From contig OZ336899.1 in assembly GCA_965287045.1 (NCBI GenBank), forward strand, positions 12,586,001-12,650,000: DNA of 64,000 nucleotides, read 5' to 3'. The notes beneath the pieces were generated by a model. That model worked only from the letters and a program-made list of their open reading frames with translations, was not told the origin of the DNA and did not search any database. The stretch comes from Carcharhinus amblyrhynchos (lineage: Eukaryota). The translations under genes and the position numbers were made by a program. Each line of letters begins with the position of its first letter. The stretch's first letter is position 1. Below, piece by piece: positions 2,849 to 56,379 of this stretch.

Positions 2849-3039
2849 TTTCACAGGTGCATACTGTTGCTGAGGTAGAGTTTCACAGGTGCCTACTTTT
2901 GTGGTGTTAGAGTTTCATGGGCACACACTGTTGCTAGGGTAGAGTTTCATGGGTGCCAACTGTTGCTGGGGTGGAAGTTCACTGGTGCACGCTATTGATG
3001 GGGTAGAGTTTCATGGACCACACTGTTGCTGGAGTAAAT
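2849..3039. repeat. Minisatellite, six diverged ~32-bp units
   Basis: Unit consensus TTTCAYRGGTGCACACTGTTGCTGGGGTAGAG; units start at 2849, 2881, 2913, 2945, 2978 and 3009. Confidence 0.9.
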
Positions 3040-3744: not shown

Positions 3745-4130
3745 TTCTATTTCTATTAGCAGCATAGCCAAGCATTCCAAGGCACCTCACAAGGGCATAG
3801 TCAGACAAAAATTGACATCAAGCTAAAGAAGGGGATTTAGGATAAGTGCATAAAGGAGTTATCTAAATGAGAAGGAAGAGATGGAGAGGTTTTGGGAGGC
3901 CATTCCAGAGTTTAGGACCAAGTTGGTTGAATACACTTCTGCCAATGGCAGAATGAAACATGTGAGGAATGCATAACAGGCTGGAATGTGGCTTGTAGGG
4001 CTAGAGAAAGTTAGAGATAGGGATGGGTGAGGCAATGGAGAGATCTGAGCACTCAGTTGGGAAGTTTTAAATTGACATATACTTACTCTGCCTGTCAGCC
4101 TGTTGTAAAGTGAGTTGAACAACCCATGTG
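3745..4130 (-). mobile_element. L2-like LINE 3' fragment
   Basis: ccaaggcacctcacaagg..cagacaaaaattgaca..gagaggttttgggaggccattccagagtttagg; similar to 7600-7900. Confidence 0.6.
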
Positions 4131-7100
4131 ACCGCATTAAGAGCCATGTCTGGTAGGATGGGATCTGATCTGAGGTTACTTCTATATAATAAAGTTAGAC
4201 AATTAGTTTGCACCATGCCAGAAGCCGAAGAACACATGGACTGCCTTAGTAGTCTAGAGTCTGACCATAATGGCCTGTTGAGGAAAGAAGCTCATGTAGG
4301 ATGTTGGGCCCAGAACCCCAAAAAATTTGTTTTGAGACCAATCCATGTGCAAAAAGAGGGGGATTGATATCTTATCAGAAAGAGTTTTCAAATTAGAAAG
4401 ATATCAATAGCACTGCTTTAGGGAAAGGAAATCAACATTCTTTAAAGCTGACAATCAGTATTTGGTGTTAAAGGGATATCCATGGTAAAGCACTTCACTT
4501 TACTGGCTTACTCAAGAATCTTAGTGTTGTTATATACTACACACTCTCTGATATCTCCAGGACCTAGACACCCTCTCCTTTATACTTATTAGGGCAGTTC
4601 ATAGAGTCTTACAGCATAAAAGATCATTCATATCCATTCTGCCACACATTTGAAAGAGTTGATGTAGAAATCCCCTTTTGCAGTTCACTTGAAATAGACA
4701 TGCATACTTTACTGTTAAATCTTACAAGCCTGGTTCAATGTCTTAAAGCGGTTGTTAGATCCTTTTGAACGCTTCTCTTCCTTCACCTATGTTTCAGTGA
4801 TACAATGACTATCTTGAATTTCATGTTCTCTTTTTCACTGCCCCTCCAATGTCAATTCCACAACACTTCATCCATTTTTGCTATTCTCCTTTCATGCTCT
4901 CTCAATTATTTAGACAAACTGTCTGATACACTCTCCCTGCTCCTGCATCCTCATTATGTAGAAATCAAGATGCATTACACTTCCTTCCATCCCAGCACAA
5001 TCTTTGTTAATCTTGGTATTCTTTTAGTTATGTGATAGGGCAGATCCAGCTGACATATTAGCCATTCACCCTGCAATGTGTTTTTCACTTGTTGGTCCTA
5101 CCCAATCAAATATTCACGATTCTGACTTTTATGCTACGATAGGTAATCCATCTCTCTCATGGAATGCCTTCTGGCCCTTGTTTTACCTCATTAGCTCTTG
5201 ACTGACCTGTCAATGTCTCTCTGCCATGCTCTTCTCTCTGTTCGAGACCACTTAACTCATCAGTCCCTTGCTGCTTTAGCGCACTCTGAATCACCGGCCC
5301 ACCTTTGACTCACTGATCCCTATCTGTTGTAATTTTTTCTTGTTGTCAGGTATTTTGTTTCATATAGAAGTATTTGAAGTTCTAGAGGGAGACAGAATGT
5401 GTTTGAGTGATATTATCAGAGTTTGATGTGAGCATCCCACCCACAGTAATTTTATTTAAAATATGTTTTTAATATTGAACAAATGAACTTCATAATTGAC
5501 TAAGGGATTGTGCTTCAACTCACACCCCCACACAGAGAAGCTTTGAATGGCATATTGTTTTCTGGTATTCAGGAAAATGTACTCCTGTCCTCAGAGAGCT
5601 GAGTTGATTCCAAAAATCAGTTGTTCAAAATTAAATTCAAAAGCAATTGGAATATTTGGAATTACTTCAAGTTATGATTTAGAACAAAAGTGGTGCATAA
5701 GTTGGGGAACAGCAATGGGTTCACCGTGAAGCACATCACATACCTGAATGCCACCCAAAAATAAATTGTATGTAGAGGCAAAGGGGAGCGGGTGGGGGCT
5801 GTTGTAGGGAGGGGTGAAAGGAGTAGGTGGGAATCGTAATGGGTGAAGAAAGCAAGATTATGACTGGAGGATTTAGGTAATGGATGAAAGTCAGCAGTCA
5901 AGTGTTAAAATGTGGATTCTGGGGGAAGAGCCAAGAGAGATCTGGAGGGAGATTGGAAAACCCAAACCAGAAAGGCTGGCATTTACAGTATAGGGAAGAA
6001 ATGGGCCAATAGAATTACACTGTAGATTCTGGAGGAGTGGGGCATGGTACAGAGAAGGTCACCTTAAGGGTAGAGACAAGTCATGACAGCACTTGGGGCC
6101 TGCTGACTTGCAGTAGAGAAAATAAAGATTCCCAAAAGGAGCTAAACTAAGGCTGGGAGGAAAGGAGGTGAGGAGACAGCCATTGACATTGCAGGGATGA
6201 AAAACTTTCTTAAATGTTAAAAAGTCATTGCAAAATAGTTGAAAATGTGACTCCTCAAAGGGATGAAAGAAATGACTACCCAAAATGATGGGAGGAGAAG
6301 TTAAATAAGTACACTGGACAACACAAGCATCGTCTGTGGACAAGGATAGGCTGTGCAAGCAGACCTAGGCATACCATGGCCTGAAAAGCAGATAGAGTGA
6401 GGTATATTGCAGTGCTGCAGATAGCACATTCTTGGCACAGTGCAGGCACAGACTGATGGAACAATGATTGCAACTACACATAATTGCTGCCTAGTTAGTG
6501 AATGATTGCAGTTTGTGTTTATATTTTAGGACATACAAATTACATGACACTGGCTGGCTCTGTCAGCTTCATTTCCAGTGGTCTATTATTTCAAAAAAAA
6601 TGTTTCTGTGGTTTAAGTTTAAATTGAGGATCTTCAAATATGCAGTGGTACACCAGGGCCAATACATCTCCACGTCCTTAGTAAATGAGACACTTTCCAA
6701 CAAAGCAAACAGTGCGTCATACAACTTTTTGACCTATCTGGAATTGCTTCTGCTTCAATTCAGAAAACTGAAATTCCTGACTGTATTTCCTGAAAGGTTG
6801 ACACCTTTGCTCCCTTTATAACTCATTGGGTGATTATACCACCGAGCATTATACCGATCTTTAGAGAGTAGTAAGTGCCTCAGTTCAATGCCTGGAGCTT
6901 GTTGCTAGTCTCATTCAGATGGGGTATGTGATGCTTCAATTGGCCTCAGTGTCTGGGAAAGGGGAGGAGAAAATTTTTATAAATTATCGGTCTTGTTGGA
7001 AGGAGAACATCCAGCAGTTAAAATTGTGCTTCAGGGCGAGAGGAAATCGGGGAGAGTTATGACAGTAGAACTAAAGGGAGATACAATAAAGAGCAATGTT

Positions 7101-7900: not shown

Positions 7901-7988
7901 AAAATGTTGTTGTAAAAGGCACAAAAACATTTCAAGCTGTACAGTAAGTCTCCTCATTTTATTCTCTCTTTTTCCCCCCAATGTTCAG

Positions 7989-8338
7989 GTGACAGTGAGG
8001 TGGTAGATAACATGTATGAAACAGATCCTGAACCACCAGCTGGGGAGAGCGGAGAAGAAGAAACAGAAGACAGCATCATGTCTCCAATTCCTGTGGGCCC
8101 ACCATCCCCACTTCCCCCCAGCAACGAATTCACTCCAAAGGAAGGGTCCCCTTATGAAGCCCCTGTCTACATTCCTGATGACATTCCAATCCCACCTGAC
8201 TTCGAGCTGAGAGAGTCTTCAGTCCCTGGAGCAGGATTAGGGATTTGGGCCAAGAAGAAGAATGAAGTAGGAGAGAAATTCGGTCCCTATGCAGGGATTC
8301 AGAGGGTGACACTAAAGGACCCAAACTTCGGATGGGAG
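7989..8338 (+). CDS. PRDM16: PRDM16 exon 2 (N-terminal region and first part of PR/SET domain)
   Basis: Polypyrimidine tract plus ttcAG acceptor ending at 7988; donor GAG|GTCAGT at 8338/8339. Length 350 nt, phase 1 in and phase 0 out, as I recall for human PRDM16 exon 2. Translation DSEVVDNMYETDP...EDSIMSPIPVGPPSP...FTPKEGSPYEAPVYIPDDIPIPPDFELRESSVPGAGLGIWAK...FGWE. The MSPIPVGPPSP and NMYE motifs favour PRDM16 over its paralog MECOM. Confidence 0.93.
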
Positions 8339-11300
8339 GTCAGTCATGTAATTGTTGATTTATTATTGTTCGTGATTGATTGGGCTCAGGGGTGCTACAT
8401 GATTCAGACTAATGACATTTTTACCCTGACAATTTGTCACTGGCAATATCCCTACAATATTCCTACTAGTGCAAGCCTTCAGTATATATGATATAAACTC
8501 TATGCTTCTGACGGAGCCACAGCCCTAGTTTTCCACAGCAACCCTATGTCTGGGCCAGAGGAGAATAACAAGATAAAACAAAGAGGCAATGCTTTCAGAT
8601 AATTTCAAAGCAGCTCTCATGATGTAACATCGCCAGTGTCAAATTCTATTGTTGCACCTAATGGATCCTATTGGACTGTTGTCACGTGAGAAAATGTTAA
8701 TTACGATCTTGTGCTTCTTTGAGGTCTAAGAGCAAGTCGAGGGCCTACCCTTACAGCCACAAATGGTGCATTAGACAAACAGATTAAGGAAATGGGGAGA
8801 AAGTTGCTCAAAAACAGGAAGTCACATCCATCTCTCAAAAAATGAAGGATATGGTGTAAGATCTTATGTATCATCAATTCTAAAGAATTGCACAGGGTAC
8901 CTTTTTATTCTGTTTTTTATTGGATGTTTATGGTTGTTTTTAATAAGTCAATGTTTTTTCAAATGCATTTCACAACTTTCTCTTGCGTGTTTGTGCAGAT
9001 CTGAAAATTCAGATAATAGCTAAGTTATTGTAATATTGGTGCAATCGCTTAGCTAATGGTTTAGCTATGTTTGAAGGTAAAATCTGTAACTGGTAGTATG
9101 TACTACTGGACATTTTCTTGTTCTGGTATTTGTGCTTATGATAACCAGAAGGAAAAACTGTTTCATACAAGCTTCATAAAAAATAAGATGTGACTGTTTT
9201 GGGAGTGACAGAACACTTCTGTCAAGTGTGTTTCCAGTATAGTGTTAGTATACTGCATGACCAGGTATCAGGTAATAATATACTCACTAAAGCACTCCTT
9301 CCAGTGAATTGTTGGATATTCTGCTTTATAATGGTGGGAGTCATGCCATATACTGGACAATATATTTGTTAGCTGATGAGAGACAACAGTTCATTTTAAC
9401 TAGCATATCCCCAATGTAGAGCTATTCTGAGGCCAGTTAGAGGCTAATTGCTTGTAGGCATATCCAGGGGGTCAATCAGCAGTCAAAGGAAGACAACTGG
9501 AAATAACTGGCTTCATTTTTACAGTGTGGCACAAAACATTACATATGACAAAAGTGTGACAGAGTCATATTTGCAGTTCCCTGTGGCATTGCTCATGGTG
9601 AATTGAAATATATGTTATTTTGTAGCTGTAAAGCTCTTAGCAATAAAGTGCAACAGTGGAAATATTACAGGAAGCAAGTGTGACACTTAGAGGATGTGCA
9701 TGCTAGATGCAAGATTCATAATGCATTGTAGATTTGCAGTACTGTTATGGGACTTGGAAGACATGCAACATACTGAGCCTCCATAGAATATAAATCAAGT
9801 GTCAGCATGTGTGAAACAGTTCTTGGATTCGAATTTATGCCTTGTTTTAATCTGACTAAAGTAATTTCATATTCCAATATCCTATTAACCTTATTGCAGA
9901 GTCACCAGGATTTAAATCTAGTCTTTGTTATAACCTGATCGAAGAGCCTCCAGGATCCTGATCCAACCCTTGTATAATTTCACAGACGATGATTCCAAAG
10001 ATGCTTGCCCAGTCCACATTTAATTGTGACTGAGTCAACTTCAGGATCCTGATCCAATGCATGTTTTAAGGCTGATTCTCACTTCTGTTGATAATGTAAT
10101 TATATTGTTTGGCATTTGTTGTTATGGAAGCATTTCCCTTTTTAAGAAAACAATGGCCAATGAGACAGAATTGAATGAATGGTTTTGTGTCTGCTTTGCC
10201 GCACAATGCCAGGATTGTCTTCAAAGAATAGCCATTGCGAGACTGTCCAATGAAAATGATGTAACATGGCTGAAGGTCATGTGACTTTCAAACGTTGATC
10301 ATTCGCCGCTGAAAGAAGATCAGTGCAGCTATATCACTTGGATAATGTTGTATTAATTCTTCTGCAAAAATAATATTTAATTGCAAGCTCAGCCCACCTG
10401 TGACATGTTTTAAATGACAAGCCAACACTTGCAGCAATGGTGAACTTTTATCATGGCTGCACTTTGACTGGGAAGATAAGGAACCAAACCATCTTACAGC
10501 ATAGTGTTACCTGTACGTGAAGGCATCCAAATTGCCCTGTTTATAAAGAGCCATCACAATGGCAGGTCTACTTCTACAATTATCGTCATAACATAAGTGA
10601 AGTAATGTGTAGTTCTTGTGTGTCTGTGCTACTTAGTTCTCAGTATCCATTATTTTCTGTATTCATCATTCTGGACTGTGTAGAGTAGCAGTTATCATTC
10701 TAACAATCCTGAATATATGTTATTTCTTAGTATTTGTTCTTTGAACACAATTCTGTCTATGGATTCTCAGGATCAGCAAAAGCTTTGATCCTGGACACTG
10801 TTAGAAGGACGCTGATTCAGTTCTTTTCTAACGGAATTTGTTACTAATGGTGGTGGAGCCCTACATGCACCTGCTACCAATGGCACTACGACTGCAGAAA
10901 GGCCTTAACATTAGGTCTGAAATATTGCAGGGGGAAGGGAGACTTGCTGCCTTCAGGCACAGGAAGCTCCGAGGATTAATTTAGACCCATTCTACCAAGA
11001 CAGACAATTCAATCTACTGGATGCATAGCTTCAGGCTCTATCCATTCTCTGTCTATTCTTCTCCGACATAAATGTGTTTCACTAGTAATCGCCTATTTAA
11101 AAACCATTAAGTGGCTTTTATTGCAACATAATATTTCACTCACATTACTCAAAAGCTATTTAGATGAGGTTGCCTCTCTCCCTCAATAAGTTCAGGTGAA
11201 GCTGCAAAACAGTGTCAGTTCTGCAGCTAATGGATTCAGTCCATGTTAGTTTGAAGTAAATATCCTGTCTTACATTTTCCTGAACTTGATTAAGGGTCAT

Positions 11301-40472: not shown

Positions 40473-40636
40473 AATGCACATCTCTGATGGGCCCTCTCCA
40501 TTTTTGTTCTTAATATACTGGTCAAATATCTTCAGGTTTTCTTTGATTTTACCTGCCAATATTTTTTACATTTCCTCTCTTTGCTTTCCTAATTTCTTTC
40601 TTTACTTCTTTACTTTGTTTACTTTCTTTACTTTGT

Positions 40637-42742
40637 TTGAATAGAGGGGAGTACGGTAGGATGAGAGAAGAATTGGCGAATGTGGACTGGGGGAGCGCGT
40701 TGGAGGGAGGGTCCGCTGAGGAGCAGTGGAGGATCTTTAAGGAGATCTTTCTTGGTGCTCAGCAGAAATTTATTCCGATGGTCAAAAAGGACTGTAGGAG
40801 GAGAGGTAATAAGCCGTGGATAACGAAGGAGGTGAAGGAAAGTGTTAAATTAAAAGCGGAGGAATTTAGAGTAGCTAAGAGTAGTGGGCGAGAAGAGGAT
40901 TGGGAGAGGTTTAAATGTCAACAAAGATTGACAAAGAAGTTGATAAAGAAGGGTAGGAGAAACTATGAAGTTGGGCTAGCGCTTAATATAAAAAAGGATA
41001 GCAAGAGTTTTTATAAATATATAAAAAGGAAGAGGCTGGCTAGGGTGAATGTTGGTCCTTTAGAGGATGAGAAAGGGGACCTAGTGGTAGGGGATGGGGA
41101 TATGGCTAAGGTATTGAATAACTTTTTTGTTTCTGTCTTCACGGAGGAGGACGTGAATAATTTGCCGGGTGTTAGCGATGGAAAGGTGGTAGGACTGGAG
41201 GGTCTTAATGACATTACTGTTACTAGAGAGGCAGTGCTCGACAGACTGGAGGGGCTGATTGTGGACAAGTCGCCAGGACCGGATGGAATGCATCCGAGGG
41301 TTCTGAAAGAAATGGCGGAGGTGATAGTGGATGCCTTGGTGGTTATTTTCCAGACGTCGCTGAATTCTGGGGAAGTGCCGGATGATTGGAAAACGGCTAA
41401 TGTTACGCCGTTGTTTAAGAAGGGTGCCAGGCAAAAGGCGGGGAATTATAGGCCGGTTAGTTTAACGTCTGTGGTAGGTAAAATGTTAGAATCTGTCATT
41501 AAGGAGAAAATTGCAAGGCATCTTGAAGGGAATTGCTTGATAGAGCAGACGCAGCACTGTTTCATTAAAGGGAAGTCGTGTCTGACAAATTTACTGGAGT
41601 TCTATGAGGATGTGTCTAGGGCAGTGGATAGAGGAGAGCCGGTGGATGTGGTCTTTCTAGATTTTCAGAAGGCGTTTGACAAAGTACCTCACAAGAGGTT
41701 ATTGCAGAAGGTCAAGGGACATGGAGTTGGGGGTAGGGTGTTAGCGTGGATAGAGGATTGGTTGTCAAATAGGAGGCAGAGAGTGGGGGTCATTGGGTGC
41801 TATTCGGATTGGCGGATGGTGACTAGTGGAGTGCCCCAGGGGTCGGTGCTGGGGCCTCAGCTTTTTACCGTTTATATAGATGATCTGGAGGAGGGAACCG
41901 AGTGTAGGGTGTCGAAATTTGCTGATGACACCAAGATTGGGGGAACGGCAAATTGTGCGGAGAGTGTGGAGAGTCTGCAGAAGGATCTAGATAGGCTGGG
42001 CAAATGGGCCAGGAGATGGCAAATGGAATTTAATGTTGGCAAGTGTGAGGTGGTCCACTTTGGTAGGAAGAATGGTAGGAAGGACTATTACTTACGTGGC
42101 GAAAAACTGCAGAGGGACCTCGGGGTCCTTGTGCATGAGTCGCAAAAACCCAGCTTGCAGGTGCAGCAGGTGGTCAGGAAGGCGAATGGGATGCTGGCCT
42201 TCATAGCGAGGGGGATTGAATATAAAAGTAGGGAGGTCTTGCTGCAGCTGTATAGGGCATTGGTGAGGCCGCAGCTGGAGTACTGTGTGCAGTTTTGGGC
42301 GCCGCACCTGCGCAAAGATATTTTGGCCTTGGAGGGAGTGCAGAGGAGGTTTACTAGGCTGATACCGGAGTTGAGGGGGTTGAGCTATGAGGAGAGGCTG
42401 AATAAACTGGGCTTGTACTCGTTAGAGTTTAGAAGAATGAGGGGAGATCTCATTGAGACGTATAAGATGATGAATGGGATGGATAGGATAGAGGTGGAGA
42501 GACTCTTCCCGCTCAAAAAAGACAGTAGGACTAGGGGGCACAGCCTCAAGATAAAAGGGGGGCGGTTTAGAACGGAGTTGAGGAGGAACTTCTTCACTCA
42601 AAGGGTGGTGAATCTCTGGAATTCTCTGCCCGTTGAAGTGGTGGAGGCTGCCTCGCTAAATATTTTTAAGACGCGGGTTGATGGGTTTTTGATAAGAGAG
42701 GGGATTAAGGGTTATGGGGAGAGGGCGGGAAAGTGGAACTGA
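40637..42742 (+). pseudogene. CR1 ORF2 reverse transcriptase, 701 open codons, no endonuclease domain and no true start codon
   Basis: KSPGPDGMHPRVLKE, NYRPVSLTSVVGK, FLDFQKAFDKVPH, GVPQGSVLGPQLF, KFADDTK, RPQLEYCVQFW, FFTQRVVNLWN; the frame begins at TTG at the truncation point. Confidence 0.92.
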
Positions 42743-42837
42743 GCAGCGACAGATCAGCCATGATCTTATTGAATGGTGGGGCAGGCTCGAAGGGCTAGAT
42801 GGCCTACTCCTGCTCCTATTTCTTATGTTCTTATGTT
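40637..42837 (+). mobile_element. Young 5'-truncated CR1 LINE
   Basis: Uninterrupted RT frame, CpGs retained, 3' UTR ending tcctgctcctat(ttcttatg)2ttc; inserted in the old CR1 at ..tttacttc|acctctg.. Confidence 0.95.
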
Positions 42838-42911
42838 CACCTCTGTATTTTCTATATTCCATCAGACTTTCTACAGAATTATGCTCTTAGTGCCTGTCAT
42901 AAGCTTTCTTA

Positions 42912-43120
42912 TGACAGACACTAAGGGCAAGTTAGTATGGCCAATCGACCTAACCCGCACATCTTTGGACTGTGGGATGAAACTTGAGCGCCCAGAGGAA
43001 ACCCACGCAGACACAGGGAGAATGTGCTAACTCCACCCATACAGTGACCCAAGTCAGGAATCAAACTCAGGCCCCTGGAACTGTGAGGCAGCAGTGCTAA
43101 CTACTGTGCCACCATGCCGC
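42912..43120 (-). mobile_element. HE1-type V-SINE, 5' two-thirds
   Basis: cacatctttggactgtggg..gaggaaacccacgcagacac..gtgaggcagcagtgctaactactgtgccaccatgccgc. Confidence 0.9.
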
Positions 43121-43510
43121 ATGCCGTATGTTTCTGGATAACCAGAGGGCTCTAGATTTGGCAGTACCCACTTTTCCCTTTGTGGGGACATTGCCTATGG
43201 AATCTTGCTTTTGAATGCCTCTCAATGATCTGACACTGTTTTTCCTTCTCATAGCTATATGCAGTCAACTTAGGTTTATCCATCAGCTTTGTAACATTTG
43301 TCTTTCCCCAATTTAGAACTTTTACCCCTGTTCTATCTTTGTTCTTTTCTATAATGATGCTAAATATTGTTATTATCCTCATAATGGTCCTCCACTGTGG
43401 CTTCATCCACTTGTCCAGCTTCATTTCCTCAGACTAAGTTGCATCCCCTCTGGTTGGGCTTGTTATGTGCTGACTAGAAAGGTTCTCTTGAATTCAGTTC
43501 AAGAATATTG

Positions 43511-44755
43511 TTGATCACCCAAATAAGGAACATAATGAACAATAACAGGTACCCCAAGTGTTCTAAGGATGTGAAGCCCAAATACAACAAGTTATGAGGA
43601 GTAAGTAATTTTTATCTGGGGCAACATGCCATAATAGCATATTTCTGTGAAGTGAAATCTTCATTCAGTAGCTGCACTTTTAACCAGTTCCCTTTGCAGG
43701 TTCACTTCATCATCAATCAAATGATCCCTGATAGCTGGAGGGTGGAGGATAATGGCGAAAGTATTCCAATTTGACCTACTGTATTGGAAAGTTTCAGTGT
43801 ATTGAATTATCAATGGCCACCATCCTCACCCTTCTCCCCACCCCTGAGAAGCTAAGTTGGTCAATGTTCTGTGTAAAATAGAATGGAACCAGCCACCAAT
43901 CACAGTCTGTGCCAATTAGATTGATCAAAACTACAACCAGTTAATCTAGAACAGTCTTTCATACTGTTTGCATTCCAATTGATATTCGGGTAGTTGAAGC
44001 CCCCAACAAATACTGCCTTCTTTTTTTGCATATAGAAATTTGCTCTTCTGACTCCTCGCTATTTGGGAGTCTGTAGTTCACTCTTCGTATGTGGCTGTCC
44101 CTTTTTAATTTCTGAGTTCAACCCATACAGCCACATTTGATGCTTCCTTCAGTATATCATCCCTCCTCAGCCATAATGATTGATATTTTTTGAAGGGAGG
44201 TTTGAAGTGGCATTTCCTAGGGGTCAGGATTGGGATCCTTGCTTTCTGAAGTTATGTTGGCAAACTAAGATTAAGCACTACACTGTGTCTATCTGTTAGA
44301 CCTGTGCTATATGGTTCTAGATTAACTGGTTGTAGTTTAGATCAATCTAATTGGCACAGACTGTGATTGGTGGCTGGTTCCATTCCATTTTACACAGAAC
44401 TTTGACCAACTTAGCTTCTCAGGGGTGGGGAGAGGGGTGAGGATGGTGGCCATTGATAATTCAATACACTGAAGCTTTCCAATACAGCAGGTCAAATTGA
44501 GATACTTTCGCCATTATCCTCCACCCTCCAGCTATCAGGGATCATTTGATTGATGATGAAATGAACCTGCAAAGGGAACTGGTTAAAAGTGCAGCTACTG
44601 AATGAAGATTTCACTTCACAGAAATATGCTATTATGGCATGTTGCCCCAGATAAAAATTGCTTACTCCTCATAACTTGTTGTATTTGGGCTTCACATCCT
44701 TAGAACACTTGGGGTACCTATTATTGTTCACTCTGTTCCTTATTTGGGTGATCAA
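43511..44755. repeat. Long inverted repeat: arms 43511-43952 and 44314-44755 (442 bp each), 361-bp spacer
   Basis: Arms aligned by eye end to end with ~13 substitutions and no gaps. Confidence 0.96.
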
Positions 44756-44829
44756 GCTTTGACTCCTTGCATAACCCAGTGTCCAAATATCTCTGTCTCA
44801 GTAGCGATCTTCTGATGGTGATTTGTACC

Positions 44830-45215
44830 ATGATGGTCAACTCTGTATTAAATATTACCTGATGTGGTTCAGCAGTTCCACCCTGGCATGGCAATCTGTG
44901 TCACATTTGCTGCAGAAGAAGACAGTGGGATGAGGTGCACAATTCTCTGGTGTCTTCTTTCTCTGAACCCTCTTTTCAGCCAGCTGAATTTTCTGTTTCT
45001 TTCCAATGCCCTTCCAGTCAGCTTCCAGAGATCACAAACATAAGCGACTGACTCCCTGCTGTCTGTTTCAATATCTTCATATCTGGCTTGTAGATGTCCT
45101 TGTAACAGAGGTATGGACACCCAGGTATGGTCACACCTTGTGATCCATCAATCAGTTTACCGTACACAAGGTCTTTGGACTTATTGCCATCATCCATCCA
45201 ATGAACATGGCCAAA
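44830..45215 (-). mobile_element. RTE-clade LINE 3' fragment
   Basis: FGHVHWMDDGNKSKDLVYGKL..GCPYLCYKDIYKPDMK resembles the RTE motif WLGHVxRMxDGRIPKDxLYGEL..GRPxLRYKD. Confidence 0.8.
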
Positions 45216-45339
45216 CAAAATATCAGGTTACTTCCAACTCACTCCATTTTAGTTGATAATGATTATTTAACAGAAGCTATTGCTTGCCATCTGATATAGT
45301 CCCCATCAGCATATTACAACTGCACAATGCAAAGTTAAA

Positions 45340-45790
45340 ACATCTCTATGCTTCGGACTAGATTAACACCCAAGTGAAGCACTGAAGTAGGACAGCACTG
45401 TTGAAGGTGTTGCATTTTGGATCAAGTTTTAAACTGTGGTTCTACCTGCCTCTCTCTAATTTGAATAAAAGATCTCATGGCATTACTTCAAGGGAGAGCA
45501 GTGGAGATTTTCCCATATTCCCAGGTGTTCTAGCCAATACTTATGGCTCAATTAACATAATGGAATCAAATGATTTGAACATTAAGATAAAAGCAATTCT
45601 GACAAAGTATCATCCAAGCTCAAAACATTAGCTCTAACTCTGCAGATGCTATCAGGCCTGCTGAGATTTTCCAGCAATTTTGTTTTTGATCTAAGCATAT
45701 TCTTATTGTTGTTAGTGGGTCCGTCCTGTGTGTAAATTGGCTGTCAAGTTTCTTTCAAAAGTGACTATACTCTAAATGTGCTTCCCAGAG
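45340..45790 (+). mobile_element. SacSINE1/Deu-domain SINE with a Penelope-like insert (45588-45690)
   Basis: aaaagatctcatggcattacttcaagggagagcag..ccaggtgttctagccaata..ctgtgtgtaaattggctg. Confidence 0.7.
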
Positions 45791-48884: not shown

Positions 48885-50870
48885 AATGGGGATATATCAA
48901 TCTTCAGCCCTGTTAATTTCTCCAATTAAACCTTCATTAGATTCGAGAGGCACCTGTGTCGGCACAGTCTTGGTAGGCCGACACAGTTCCTGTGCTGTTT
49001 TGTTCTTTGTTCATACTATTACAAATTTCCTTCAATTCCTTATTCTCCCTTGTCCCTTGGATCTCTAATTCTGGGAGATTTTTTGCATCTCTCTCAGTGA
49101 AGATAGACACAAAGTAATCATTAAGTTTCTTTAGCTTCTCTGCTATTTTGCTATTCCCTGTTATAACTTTTCCTGTCTTTATCTGTAATGGACCCACACT
49201 TGTCTTAGCCAAAGATTTATTTTTTAAGTAGCTGCAGAAACAGTTACCATCTGTTCTTACATTTTTCCTAGTTTACATTCTTATCCGAAGCTTCCTTTCT
49301 TTATCAGTTTCCTGGTCCTCCTTAATGTATTCAAAAATCTTCCTGATCCTCAGGTTTATTACAGTTTCTGGTGGTTTTATAGGCCTTTATTTTTAATCTT
49401 TAATCCTTAATTTCCTTTTTAGCCACAGTTTCTTTGGGTATTTATACCTTGAATGTATGTGTAAATACTGCAAATTATGTCATAATGATTATCCATTGGA
49501 AAAGACTATTATATATTTTATTACATTTTCCCAATCCACCTCAACCAACTTACTCCTCACACCTTCACTTAATATCCTGGCTTCAGATTGAACTACCTCC
49601 CTTGCCGCATAATGTAAAACTTTATCATATTATGGTCACTCATCCCTCAGGCTCTTTTACAAGATTATTAATTAGTCTTTTTTCATTACATAATACCAGA
49701 TCTAAACTTGTTTGTTCTCCAGTCAATTCCTCAACATTCTACTCAAGAAAATGATCCCTAACACACTCCAGAACACTGCAGAAACTTGCCTTTCATTACA
49801 TTAGCACTTATCAGATTTCCTCAGTCTTTATGCAGATTGAAGTCACCCATGATCATTGTATTACCCATACTACATACTTCTCTAATCTCCTGACTCATAC
49901 CATGACCCACACTACCACTATTGTTTAATGGCTTATAAACAACTCCCACCAGTGTATGCTGCCCCCTTGCTGGTTCTTAGCTTCACCCAAACAAATCCTC
50001 CATTTTGTTCTTCCAAACTGAGATCTTCCCTTATTAATGTACAGATCCAATCCCTTATTATCAGCGCAACCCCACTCCCTGCCTGTCCTTAATAAAAATT
50101 AAGTGAAGTAATCAACAGTGGATTTCTCCTCTGATTACATCTGCTGGATGCATGAATGTCAAAGGAGGCCTTAGCTCCGATGTCCTCCAAGACACATACT
50201 GAGTATCCAACATTCCAGTGTTGCAATTCTTAGGGGTTTCATTTTATGATGTGAAATGATACATTTTGGTGGGAAAAATAAGGAGAGGCATTATGAACTA
50301 AATAGTACCATTTAAAAGAGTGTGTGTGAATTGAGAGACTGGGGAATACATGTACACAACTATTTGAAGGTGGCAGGAGAAGTTTAGAAGGCTATCAATA
50401 ATGTTAATAGGAGATTATTGAATAGTGAGTTCCTAGTCTTGGTCACCCTGCAGCCATATTTATGGTAATTAGATCATACACATTTATCTCTATTTATGCC
50501 TTTTAAATCTTGTTGTGATTTCTGCATGCATTCAGTAGAGTGCCTTTAACTTAGCCTTTGTGATATTATTCCACGTTCTAGATTCAGTTGATGCTTGCCT
50601 TCATTTTGCTTGCTGTATAATTTCACTTTTCTACTTCCCATTACCAGCTTTACTTTCTTTCAATTTGAACTACCCCTCGGATTCCAACCTTCCTGCCCAA
50701 CAGCACTAGCAAAGCTCCCTGTGAGGATATTCGTCCTGGTCCTGTTCAGGAATAACCTGTCTAGCTTGTACAAATCCCACCTGTCCTAATGCCACAAAAT
50801 CTGATTGCCCCCCCCCCCCCCGCCATACCAATCTTCCTATTCTCATTCTCATCCTGTCGAGATGTGCAAT
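48885..50870 (-). mobile_element. Old CR1 LINE fragment (ORF1 esterase C-terminus, endonuclease, linker)
   Basis: ORF 48937-49212 (SVGPLQ..LNDYFVSIFTE); MGDFNL antisense at ~49840; RWDLYKLDRLFLNRTRTNILTGSFA (CR1 ORF1-like) at 50790-50705. Confidence 0.8.
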
Positions 50871-50919: not shown

Positions 50920-51860
50920 ATCAGAACAAAAGTTATCTAATAATTCCAATCACCTGTTCTTTCCCATAACCCTTCAAGCATTTATCAAATTGACTTTAAC
51001 ATGTTGTTGTTGAAACTGTCTCCACCACTCTCAGCTGGAATAATCAACAGTAAATTTCTCCTCTGATTCTCTGATCACATCTGCTGGATGCACAAATGTC
51101 AAAGGGGGCCTTAGCTCCGATGTTCTCCAAGACAAATACTGAGTACCATGTAGTGCCCAACATTCCAGTGTTGCAATTCTTAGAGGTTTCATTTTATGAT
51201 GTGAAATGATACATTTTAGCAGGATGAATAAAGAGAGGCACTGGAATGCAGTGCATTCCAAATCACAGGAACATACTGAGTAAGAAATGTTTCCTCATGT
51301 AGCCTCTGGTTCTTTTGCCAGTAGTCTTAAATTTGTGTCCTTTGGTTACTAATTATTGGAAACATTGGCAGGATTTTCTAGCCATGCTTGCCCCAAGTCC
51401 GAAAAATCCCATCTAAGGTCAACAGACCTTTGCATCGTCCACCCTCCGGATCGCTACAGTTCCGTGATGGGCAGAATGGGAAAATGTCACCCATTGTCTC
51501 CTTATTTACACTTTCAAAACCATTCATAATTCTGAACACCTCGATCAAATCTTCTCTTAATTTCCTTTGCTCTAAAGAAAACTAACCCAGCTTCTCTATT
51601 TCCTCAAAATAACTGAGGCCCTCATCTCTGGTACCATTTTATTATGTCTCTTATGCCCTCGCTGCTCCAAGGGCTTGACATCTCCTATTAATAAAGCCAG
51701 GCTTTTTGATAGCCTTCTAAGCTTCTCCTGCCACCTTCAAATAGTTGTGTACATGTACTCCCTGGTCTCTCAATTCACACACACTCTTTTAAATGATACT
51801 ATTTAGTTCATAATGCATCTCCTTATTTTTAACCGCTAAAATGTATCATTTCACATCATA
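50920..51860 (-). mobile_element. Old CR1 3' fragment hosting copy B and a MITE
   Basis: gcagtgcattccaaatc, cataattctgaacacctcgatcaaatc, aaaatgtatcatttcaca (CEMIHF-like). Confidence 0.75.
51367..51492. mobile_element. 126-bp MITE
   Basis: ggcaggatttt..aaaatgtcaccc, flanked by ATT on both sides (possible 3-bp TSD, consistent with PIF/Harbinger). Confidence 0.75.
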
Positions 51861-54800
51861 AAATGAAACCTCTAAGAATTGCAACACTGGAATGTTGGGT
51901 ACTCAGTGTTTGTCTTGGAGAACATCTGAGCTAAGGCCTCATTTGACATTCATGCATCCAACAGATGTTATTAGAGGAGAAATCCACTGTTGATTATTTC
52001 AGTTGAGAGCAAGACTGTATGAGTCTGTCTATGATCGGATTGGGCAGCAGTTTTCCACCTTTCATGGTCAAATAGCCAGTTGACAATGTCTCGACACAAA
52101 GCATAGCTAGTTTGACAACGTACTAGAGGACGACTGGTACTTGTGGAACTAAACCCCAATATGGAGTCCACAACATCAGACAAGAGGAGGGGAGAAGAGA
52201 AAAAGATATCAGAGAAATAAAAAAAGCCACTTTCTAAATTAATATCACCAACTGGGTGTTGAAGCTAATGCTTAGAATTAATAATTAGAAAGTTTAATAC
52301 TCCTAATTCTACAGTAACAAATTGTAAGTTGTGCATATATAGGGAGTTTAACCATAGCAATGAATGTTAGATTGCCTTGTACAATGGTTTCAGCTGTTTC
52401 ATGTCATTTGTTTGAGAATCAGCTCCTTGTGTAATGAATGGATAGCGGGGCTAGTATTGAAAGCAAAACAATGAATCAAAGGGATTTCTACAAGTTGTAA
52501 ACTTGTTTTGTGAAAGTTGATTGATAATACCACTAAAACATTAGTTCGATTCCGTTCTGAAACAGTATTCAAAAGACAAACAGTGATTGACAGAATTCAC
52601 TTAGCGATTTCAAGAATTATACTTGGACAAATTTACTCCCTTCATGTCTTGAAGTGGTTGGCTGTGCCAGGCTACTGTCAGCACTCAGTCTGTAAGAGCT
52701 TTTTGGCTATTCTACCATGAAGTTAATTGTGCCTTCATCTTGTTTTCACACAATGCATTTAGGATTCACTGGAGAGCAATCAATGGGCTCAAATTCCAGA
52801 AAAATCAAAGGTTATTTTGCTTAGAAACTTCTGTTTTTTCATTTTCTTATTAAAATGAGAGATATTAATGTTGGAGGAAGAAATCACTTAGGGAATGGAA
52901 CACTCCCTGCCTTAGACAACTAGTGCCAGAAGTAGGCTCCATCTAGTTAGGTGCAGCATAAGTTAGATACAGAAGGTAGTTCCCTTCAGTCTACCTCTGA
53001 AAGCTACCTCAGTTCCAGCCAGAGAGGAGTACCCCCACTTCATTAATGCAATGCTTTTATCCAGCGCTTGAACCAGTCACCTCCAGGCCCGTTTCAAATG
53101 GCAATGCCAATGAGGAAGGTTTTATATTATGGGCTGGATTTGTATATTGATCCCAGCGTTGAGTGTTTAATCCATCAAGTACCTGATGCAAAATTCTGAG
53201 AATTCAATTGTTGACCAAAACACTGCTTTGCTAGGAAGGGTCAGTGCAAATGCCTTTGCTGATTTTATGATTTCCCAACTCCAGTGTATTGACATCAATG
53301 CAAATTACAAGACACCCAGATAAAGGAATTTTCTTCCAATTTCCTGTTTTCCAAAAGAGCACTGTCTTCACAAATGAAGTGTCTGACAAATCTTTTCGTG
53401 TTGGCTGTTAAAGAAGGAGCCACAAAACGTGTATACCATTTTTACCATGATGTGTTGACTCTTTGGTGCAATGCTAATGTGTCCTGCTTTTGTAAACACA
53501 TTAGCATTTGTCAAATGTAATCTGTAGAATTGAGAGCCTCAGCACCCGTTTTTAGCACTGTGGAAATGAATGGATTTTGACTGAGTTAAAATTTCACCAT
53601 CTGTGATGAGATGAGATAGCATGACCATTTATTCAACTTTGAACCTGATAACCAAACTCTGTGTTTCTTACTCTTTAAAAAAAAATGATGAGATGCGCAT
53701 GCATGGAGCAAACTAGCTACCTGAAATTGCAATTGAGCCTATGTTCAGTTTTGTGAATGCCTGTTCAGATCAGCTTTTTTTTATTTTCTGCTACTCTCCT
53801 GTTCAGAAAACCATCTGGTGTTTGACAGGGCACAAGGTGGCCACATGACGACAAAACCCTGAAGCAAGATGACCCTTTGTTCATTCAATATCCCCTCCTC
53901 CACAATCTCACCCCCCACAATCCCAGACACCCCACCCCTCACCCCAACCCCCACCACCAAACTGGGCTCCCTTAACCTGAAGCAGAGACCGAAAGAGAAA
54001 AATAGTGCAAATTTGGAATCCAGAACATCATAAGATAATGAGAAAGCTGATTACTTTTAATGCCAGTTTCCCCTTTGACTCATCAACCTCTCTTTCATGG
54101 TTTCTGGTTCTCAGCCTTCCTCGTCCTTGCTAGTTTATTTTAATTCCCTTTGGGTAATCCAACTCCTTGAGGAGTCAGAAACTACAATTCCAGGGGAAGA
54201 TAAGTGTGCTGATTATAGGAGTATAATATTTTCTTGTTTACCAAAGAATGATCATCATCCAGTTTGACCTAAAATTCTCAAAGTTGCAGTATGGAAACAA
54301 TTATCTGCCTTACACTGTGCTACAGAAAAGAATTGGTTCATTTAAATTTTGCAAGATATCAAGTTGCCAGTGGCAAAACTAACCTTACAGAGCATGTGAG
54401 AATTGTTTAAAAGAACACAAATATTTTTCTGCTACTTTTAATTAAAGTACATTTTCAGACTGTCCTTATATAACTGTGAGGAAATAATAACTTCCATTTA
54501 TAACATTCTAAATTTTGTGAAGTGTGAATATTTTGTGATTTAAATTGGCCCATTTCTGACAGATGTGATGAAGAACAGTAGCGTTAGAGTCAGTGATTTT
54601 GTATTTTGGTATAGTTTTCAGGTGCTCGGAGCAACATCAGCATGACTCCATACTGTTAACGTATTTTCTATCCAAAAACTCCGTCACTTTGCAACAGGGA
54701 AATTAAATCCTGATGCAGGGCAGACATTTAGGAAGGCACTTGCTTAGAAAAATAGATGTTTTGCAAACTTTTCCTTTTTGAGGTGAAAGGATTTATCCAT

Positions 54801-56106
54801 TGGAAAAAAAAATTGACAAAGAAATCAACCCATTTCCCACTATCCAGTGCCTCTTTGTAGAAACTTATCTCTTTGTCTGCCAATTAAGGGAAAGATCAAG
54901 CTATCTTGCCACCATGGACAAATAATGGCCAAACTTTCATTATCTATTCCCTGTTAGGAAAAAAGCCCCATTTGAGTGATGTATAGTAAGAGGCATGGCC
55001 ACTAAAGACAACAATGCTCTAACCCAGCAAGGAATCAATACTTTCAGGAGAGGACTGAGAAGGGACTTTTGAAGGTGGAATTTATCTTAAGTGGTAGTAT
55101 AACAAATAGTAAAAAATATAAAACAGTTACTTGACAGCCAATTTTCCACCTCACCTGACTTTGTTTCCTAATTGAAGCTTCTTTGTGTCTTAAACATGGA
55201 GTCACGATCCAAATGGCTGGATAAGTACTCATTCTTCACTGAGAAACTTGGATGAAGAAGCAAGGCCCAAACCAATGCTGACAAGAGTAAAAAAGAAAAT
55301 TATGTAAATTAAGAAGTACTAGTTACATGGGAGTAAGCTTGAACTTTAAAAGTCTATAGGCTGGAGGAAGAAGGGAAGAGTATTAATGTTAAAAATTCCA
55401 GCGCTAGGAGATGAAAATTAGACAGAGTGGGTGGGATTTCATTTTTAGTGTAGGACTCGTCTGGATCGTGACACTGCACCACTGTGGCAACATACACAGG
55501 TTGCAGTTTTAATTTAGAAACTAATTGACCCAGAGTCATATTCACTACCCAATTAGCATTGCTGAATGTTGGAAGGAAGTGGGAAGTAGGCAGCAGTGGG
55601 CTCGATTTAAAGGTCAGATGGCAGCTATTGCAGAAGTTGCCATTCTTACAAAAAAAAGGAAGAAGGACCTGGGCAGAAGACAGTGATCAGGAAGGGCCCT
55701 CACCACACCATTTTTCTAATGCCTCACAGTGATGAAAGCAATGACTGAACACCAAAACATCAACTGAAAACTTACAAGACTAACCACGAAGGCATGGCTG
55801 GAAGTGGCACATGAGATCAACTGCAGTGAGGAACTGGGTGCAGTTTGAAAATGTTTCAATGACCGTCTCAGGTCTGACAAGGTGATTCCAGAAAAAGATC
55901 TACATGCTATGCCATAAGCTGTCACCACAGTGCAAAAGAGAGGGACATCCTGAAGTTACATAGAGTTCTCCTGATTATGGGAAAGATGTGTGCTCAACAG
56001 CTTTGATACATAAGCATAGATCAGAGCCTCAGTGCTGCTAGTCGGGTGGCTGAAATGCAGACTGCAGAAGCACGTGCAAATAAAGAGCTGTGAGTGTTAA
56101 GGGACA

Positions 56107-56379
56107 AAGAACATATAAGAACATAAGAACATAAGAAATAGGAGCAGGAGTAGGTCATCTGGCCCTTTGAGCCTGCCCCGCCATTCAATAAGATCATGGC
56201 TGATCTGTCATGGCTCAGTTCCACTTTCCCGCCCTCTTCCCATAACCCTTAATCCCCTTGCTTATCAGAAACCCATCAACCCGCGTCTTAAAAATATTTA
56301 GCGAGGCAGCCTCCACCACTTCAACGGGCAGAGAATTCCAGAGATTCACCACCCTTTGAGTGAAGAAGTTCCTCCTCAA
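56107..56379 (-). mobile_element. Young CR1, 273-bp 3' end (same subfamily as 40637-42837)
   Basis: Reverse complement of 42578-42837 with ~11 differences; tail (ttcttatg)n. Confidence 0.95.

Follow-up and report, generated by a model that had tools for sequence, protein, structure and literature searches.

The 64-kb window analysed here (the whole stretch of DNA, 64,000 nucleotides) contains two long, nearly identical sequences in opposite orientation, which raises the question of how such a pair arose and whether it now has any role in the gene around it. The two arms (Table 1) are each 442 nt long, align from end to end with no gap and are separated by a 361-nt spacer. They are 97.06% complementary, with 13 mismatches over 442 nt (10 transitions and 3 transversions) and an alignment score of 739 bits. 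A 97% match across 442 nt is far beyond chance, and this pair is the longest of the 27 inverted pairs detected in the window. A previous reading based on the letters of the window (the sequence-only reading) had described two 442-bp arms with about 13 mostly transitional substitutions, no indels and a 361-bp spacer, and comparison of the arms confirms this description. The exact cut of the left arm can also be written as 43512-43953, the net insertion being 442 nt. The reading that we favour, with a probability of roughly 0.88, is that the left arm is a backwards copy, 442 nt long, of single-copy DNA located 361 nt to its right, that it entered an old LINE fragment cleanly, likely through a single round of fold-back or template-switch synthesis, and that it is likely a neutral scar.

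Table 1. Features of the window and local inverted duplications found in the survey (entries beginning with L).
Feature	Position	Strand	Remarks
Coding exon, likely PRDM16 (start of PR domain)	7989-8338	+	ORF 7916-8488; AG before 7989, GT at 8339
Left flank: old CR1-type LINE piece (last part of endonuclease region and beyond)	43126-43511	-	41 genome matches, paralogs 71-77%
Left arm	43511-43952		Derived, reverse-complement copy of 44314-44755
Spacer	43953-44313		361 nt; 43954 to about 44181 is the same minus-strand CR1-type endonuclease piece as the left flank
Right arm	44314-44755		Source copy; single-copy intron DNA without recognisable repeat, RNA family or long ORF
Local-only inverted duplication	L075:298-899		
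Local-only inverted duplication	L076:2111-3212		
Local-only inverted duplication	L146:582-1976		
Local-only inverted duplication	L132:326-1158		
Local-only inverted duplication	L119:1511-1937		

The left flank and the LINE part of the spacer are colinear, minus-strand pieces of one dispersed element, whose paralogous copies place only about 10 nt between them. The sequence-only reading had seen the left arm as interrupting one old minus-strand CR1, and the single colinear element bears this out; CR1 is a label that we assume for this LINE, and Pfam supports a piece of an AP-endonuclease LINE. Two of four paralog reading frames running across the insertion point match the Pfam family Exo_endo_phos_2; the stronger match passes the cut-off (E 1.5e-7), whereas the weaker falls short of it (E 0.003). 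The 35-aa piece that the window encodes at this point has no Pfam match. At the insertion point the element is about 9-11 nt shorter than most of its paralogs. Loss of these bases as part of the insertion event was considered and rejected, because the empty site of organism F (see below) is likewise without them, and the gap is therefore older than the insertion. A short hairpin (stem of about 10 bp, around 43484-43507) ends a few bases before the insertion point, but is a weak lead since it is also present in paralogs without the insertion.

Short-read contigs of related organisms were compared with the left flank, the left arm and the spacer in 8 of 23 runs (9 studies); the outer junction of the right arm lies outside these stretches, and no single contig spans the whole pair. 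The junction between flank and left arm is bridged in four of four runs (X4, together with X5, X6 and X9 for organisms A, B and C), with 66, 66, 66 and 254 arm letters past the junction. The inner left junction is bridged in X4 and X5, and one X4 contig (record 8) contains the entire spacer together with both inner arm ends. Left-type and right-type contigs occur separately, side by side, in X5, X6 and X9. Contigs of organism D (X12, X14) reach just 6 letters into the left arm, too few for bridging, and organism E (X19) is uninformative on this arm.

The direction of the event is given by organism F, through one run (X20) of its four listed runs. A 420-letter contig joins 43511 directly to 43954, with 120 letters on its shorter side, and a second contig (record 24), whose depth is that of a single copy (6.66 versus 5.8), has one arm adjoining the spacer's right end. 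The presence of an empty site together with a single right arm implies that the right arm is ancestral and that the left arm is a net insertion of 442 nt. This is what the sequence-only reading had expected, in making the left arm the derived copy and the right arm its source and in proposing a search for an empty site in a relative. The left arm is a clean insertion, with nothing deleted and no target duplication. At the joints, 1 nt is shared on the outer side and 0 on the inner side, where one base is unexplained; a 4-nt match located 12 nt inside the inner joint is at chance level, and later substitutions may hide microhomology. Two other candidates for empty-site evidence were discarded: the LINE flank shows small joints that derive from paralogs, among them a skip from 43487 to 43958 with 28 intervening letters, and the uncovered spacer in X6 was set aside, about 82% of that run having been read.

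A minus-strand 3' end at the insertion point, belonging either to a stalled nascent strand or to a break end after resection, would loop back over the 361-nt spacer, start at the inner end of the right arm and copy it through to the outer end; the new strand would then come off and join the left end with almost no homology. Since the source lies on the side where a minus-strand 3' end could fold back, such looping, copying and joining would give exactly the structure seen. The sequence cannot discriminate between a replication switch and break repair. Both had been offered as routes to a local templated inverted insertion in the sequence-only reading, and an insertion of this kind is supported by the bridged junctions, the empty site in organism F and the finding of only two genomic matches for the arm (see below).

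Local inverted duplication is a mutation class already known, and the one at this locus is real, old and well-polarised. In the structural variation map of the 1000 Genomes Project (Sudmant et al. 2015, PMC4617611), inverted duplications account for 54% of the resolved inversion sites; these human 'Inverted Dup' events are nearly all smaller than 1 kb, lie no more than 5 kb from the other copy and usually have no link to retrotransposition. In size and spacing the shark pair resembles these proximal inverted duplications, the commonest class among human inversions: the new copy is 442 nt long, reversed and 361 nt from its source, it has no target duplication, tail or dispersed family, and the allele without it is seen in organism F (one run; joint 43511-43954, one arm at 1x). 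Unlike the human polymorphisms of that report, it is old and common to related organisms, the empty site being found only in the outgroup. The order of switch points is equally familiar. Among the short-range template switches of apes (Walker et al. 2021, PMC7954356), types 1-4-3-2/3-2-1-4 are reported as the majority pattern, and the order of their switch points produces one inverted repeat and a net lengthening, as it does here (exit at 43511, return at 43954, right arm copied in reverse). However, the gold-standard ape tracts have a median of 12 and a maximum of 128 nt, and the 442-nt tract exceeds this maximum.

The fold-back insertions known from yeast and the microhomology-mediated templated insertions (MMBIR) offer a similar picture, with one end folded back and extended and the other end-joined, and human germline examples exist (PMC11724301, PMC8421209). 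The local fold-back templated inversions at yeast double-strand breaks are reported to measure about 5-34 bp with microhomology beside the break (PMC11724301), whereas a loop of 361 nt is combined here with joints that have no more than 1 nt in common. Germline MMBIR insertions are described as mostly showing microhomology (PMC8421209). Two features count against our explanation: the near absence of microhomology, unlike usual MMBIR and yeast fold-back events, and a copied tract far longer than yeast fold-back insertions and ape short-range switches. Among the titles listed in our literature searches (for one query, the best 10 of 84), none concerned this locus.

The age of the insertion can be estimated from the arms themselves. 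They diverge at 13 of 442 positions (2.9%). The window differs from organism C at 16 of 622 positions (2.6%; p=0.71 against the arm-to-arm divergence) and from organism F at 55 of 938 (5.9%; p=0.02 against the same value). These figures fit an event that would postdate the separation from F and slightly predate that from B and C, with clock-like decay thereafter. Under the favoured reading, the insertion would have been fixed in this interval, and the arms would have drifted since.

Could the arms, while having the same origin, be something other than inert? They might have been re-homogenised again and again, and in one lineage lengthened towards the spacer, through gene conversion or switching between them. 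Several contigs hint at this. In X4, the letters of record 7 (43735-43926) are those of the right arm, at a depth of 1.66-1.84x; one would expect 1.36x if positions 43865 and 43880 differ between the arms and 1.64x if they are shared. In organism C, record 31 of X9 passes unbranched from the inner arm (43826-43952) into 44313-44213, that is, into 101 nt of spacer, at 2.26x instead of the expected 1.49x, and position 44173 has no cover in X9. In organism D, record 6 of X12 joins left-arm letters to the right inner junction. Both homogenisation of arms and inversion of spacers by switching are known processes (PMC8604942). However, contigs drop variants and collapse bubbles, and each of these hints comes from a single run; depth in X12 is below 5, and the incomplete contig tables give at least the contigs described. 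Record 22 of X6 and record 14 of X5 fit plain bubble collapse (1.48 versus 1.58 and 1.44 versus 1.51, respectively). At 43765 and 43792 the two arms still have their own letters in the window, X5, X6 and X9, and overall arm divergence is not below species divergence. We therefore regard recurrent homogenisation as unlikely. Nevertheless, the arms may be longer in organism C, to judge from its contigs, and given the contig depths in X4 and organism C the decay of the two arms may not be fully independent.

Any function of the pair would depend on its host gene. The window exon listed in Table 1 has its best PDB match in 2N1I (PRDM16, 116 bits), MECOM scoring 81.5 bits over a shorter chain. About 322 kb beyond the repeat, this strand carries another PR-domain exon, which matches MECOM a little better (66.9 bits) than PRDM16 (56.6 bits), and the one other close paralog in the genome, on C3, also scores best with 2N1I; PDB scores alone were for these reasons rejected as a discriminator between the two genes. 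Over a short stretch that differs between the paralogs, the window exon has the same residues as 2N1I, unlike the C3 copy. No C2H2 motif turned up when the window was scanned. We take PRDM16, on the + strand, to be the likely host. With PR-domain exons on this strand on both sides of the repeat and the window exon matching 2N1I, the PRDM16 intron assigned in the sequence-only reading is the likely location; judging from these flanking exons, the repeat would be intronic whether the gene is PRDM16 or MECOM. The nearest exon found is 35 kb from the repeat, and both arms lie in one intron.

In the pre-mRNA of this likely PRDM16 gene, the arms would pair into a stem of about 440 bp. The predicted RNA fold is one long stem with the arms paired from end to end (-911.7 kcal/mol), its longest uninterrupted run being 158 bp. 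Like inverted Alu pairs, the arms would form a long intramolecular stem in the pre-mRNA; unlike them, they consist of single-copy DNA belonging to no SINE family. If the intron is transcribed, a degree of nuclear ADAR editing would come as no surprise. On the model of other intronic inverted repeats, the stem is plausible as a passive ADAR substrate. The sequence-only reading had proposed ADAR or Dicer as enzymes that might act on it, a consequence that gains no support from the comparisons of the arms (see below). No RNA run was listed for 43000-45300, a blank that has no bearing on expression. A stronger version holds that the hairpin is kept as an RNA element of the PRDM16 transcript, serving as an ADAR decoy or editing site, a splicing modulator or a source of small RNAs. 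The stability of the predicted fold and the presence of the repeat in organisms A, B and C are in keeping with such an element.

A retained element should be visible as constraint on the arms. Differences from organism F affect arm and flank to a similar extent (21/439 versus 34/499, p=0.21), as do those from organism C (7/254 versus 9/368, p=0.80, with 9 table rows outside this split). Of the 13 differences between the arms, 4 leave G-U pairs on the sense strand and 9 are mismatches that break pairing; among the 10 transitions the division into 4 that leave G-U and 6 that do not is as expected by chance (p=0.75). Neither conservation nor compensatory change of arm pairing was found in these small samples of arm and flank from F and C. 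As the arms change as fast as their flanks and 9 of 13 changes break RNA pairing, there is no sign of selection, in tests of low power that could miss a short functional motif. An Rfam search over 43100-45400 gave nothing near gathering score, its single match being at chance level (SIB_RNA, 20.6 bits versus 56). The distance to the nearest exon and the placement of both arms within one intron also speak against a role in the transcript. Furthermore, about 5 million dsRNAs are predicted in human (PMC11838218), so that pairing alone means little. We consider a maintained RNA element highly improbable. The same holds for the more elaborate picture of a living element, whose arms would be copied onto each other in different lineages and would have grown towards the spacer, in organism C by at least 100 nt, keeping a PRDM16 pre-mRNA hairpin of about 440 bp that ADAR edits and that affects transcript processing.

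At the DNA level, cruciform extrusion, which the sequence-only reading had also suggested, is unlikely with a 361-nt spacer, because extrusion starts at the centre of the palindrome (PMC7999016). Instability is suppressed by long spacers, and a 52-bp spacer already abolished frequent fork stalling in eukaryotic cells (PMC7999016). The length of the spacer also helps explain the survival of the repeat.

A further possibility is that a rare transposon inserted twice, or that the whole 1245-nt unit is a foldback element. Palindromic dispersed elements are indeed present in this genome, L048 having 73 matches. However, a search of the 2.92-Gb genome with the right arm returned two candidates, and both are the two arms themselves. 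When the left flank served as query, there were 294 candidates and 41 matches, with paralogs down to 71-77% identity. For the query 44195-45300, the 40 candidates scored out of 427 included paralogs (66-80%) of the repeat beyond 44800 but none of the arm. A blank search does not prove rarity, which leaves some room for a rare transposon, but this one was sensitive on both neighbours of the arm. In addition, the DNA of the spacer is host LINE sequence that runs on colinearly from the outside flank, and organism F has one arm and an empty site without target duplication. Dispersed copies with target duplications, as expected of a foldback transposon or MITE, were not found for the arm, in contrast to the 73 matches of L048. 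Two points of the sequence-only reading thus hold, namely that the arm would have only two matches genome-wide and that it shows no transposable element features (no target duplication, tail or dispersed family). A mobile origin of the pair is therefore scarcely credible. The source DNA might itself be a transposon too old to be recognised, which would leave the favoured reading, a local backwards copy, unchanged. Finally, although only short-read contigs are at hand and none crosses the full stretch, an assembly or sequencing artefact such as a fold-back read deserves practically no credence, because the arms differ at 13 sites, mostly by transitions, the junctions recur in four of four runs from four studies, and left-type and right-type contigs are separate in three of these.

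To estimate how common such pairs are, 140 unselected 10-kb stretches (1.4 Mb) and the window were surveyed for inverted pairs of at least 100 nt and at least 85% identity within 3 kb, a filter that overlooks young transposon DNA copied locally. Of the 25 pairs detected, 23 lie outside the window; 17 of the latter have copies elsewhere in the sample, one more is dispersed, and five are local-only on genome search (Table 1). L048 was dropped from the count of local pairs as a dispersed palindromic element; its segment 289-589 represents a separate dispersed palindromic family. Other dispersed palindromic elements (MITE-like or foldback-like), several of them many-copy in the sample, occur at L025:2955-3681 and 4094-4515, L034:6610-7248, L070 and L078. 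The local-only pair of L119 is a near-palindrome with 206-nt arms at 97%. An inverted pair at L141:4890-6418 (179 nt, 98.9%, 1.2 kb apart) belongs to a young repeat family (97% elsewhere), and could be either two insertions or a local copy. The density of local-only pairs is 3.6 per Mb (95% interval 1.2-8.3), or about 3,000-24,000 per genome if the sample is representative, which it may not be. All five are on contigs shorter than 47 Mb, three of them around this gene; the contrast between five in 800 kb from these contigs and none in 600 kb from larger ones is post hoc (p=0.06).

The window holds a second, older local duplication, in which a 301-nt stretch (50101-50401) has an inverted copy at 51703-52004, 1.3 kb away and 92% identical. 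Half of this stretch is single-copy and half is old LINE; a third partial copy lies between them (around 51028-51240), and the single-copy half matches only these three places. With 5 of 140 stretches containing local-only pairs and a second case in the window, this class of event is common. Other repeats of the window include a tandem array at 2849-3016 with a 32-nt period, and a young LINE piece at 40547-42838 with a 731-aa open frame containing RVT_1. The 3' end of this young LINE recurs inverted at 56106-56379, 13 kb downstream in the same intron region, at 94-96% identity. Pfam searches on 15 chosen of the 157 ORFs found only RVT_1, in this separate LINE (40547-42739).

Taken by itself, the locus matters little, being one clean and well-dated instance of a mutation class that is common. 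Its presence or absence has modest value as a marker of how these species are related. Should the re-homogenisation of the arms or their editing prove true, the pair would become a natural test case for how an accidental hairpin is kept or lost. More generally, the survey suggests thousands of single-copy inverted pairs per genome, which would be a background of intronic dsRNA that does not come from transposon families.
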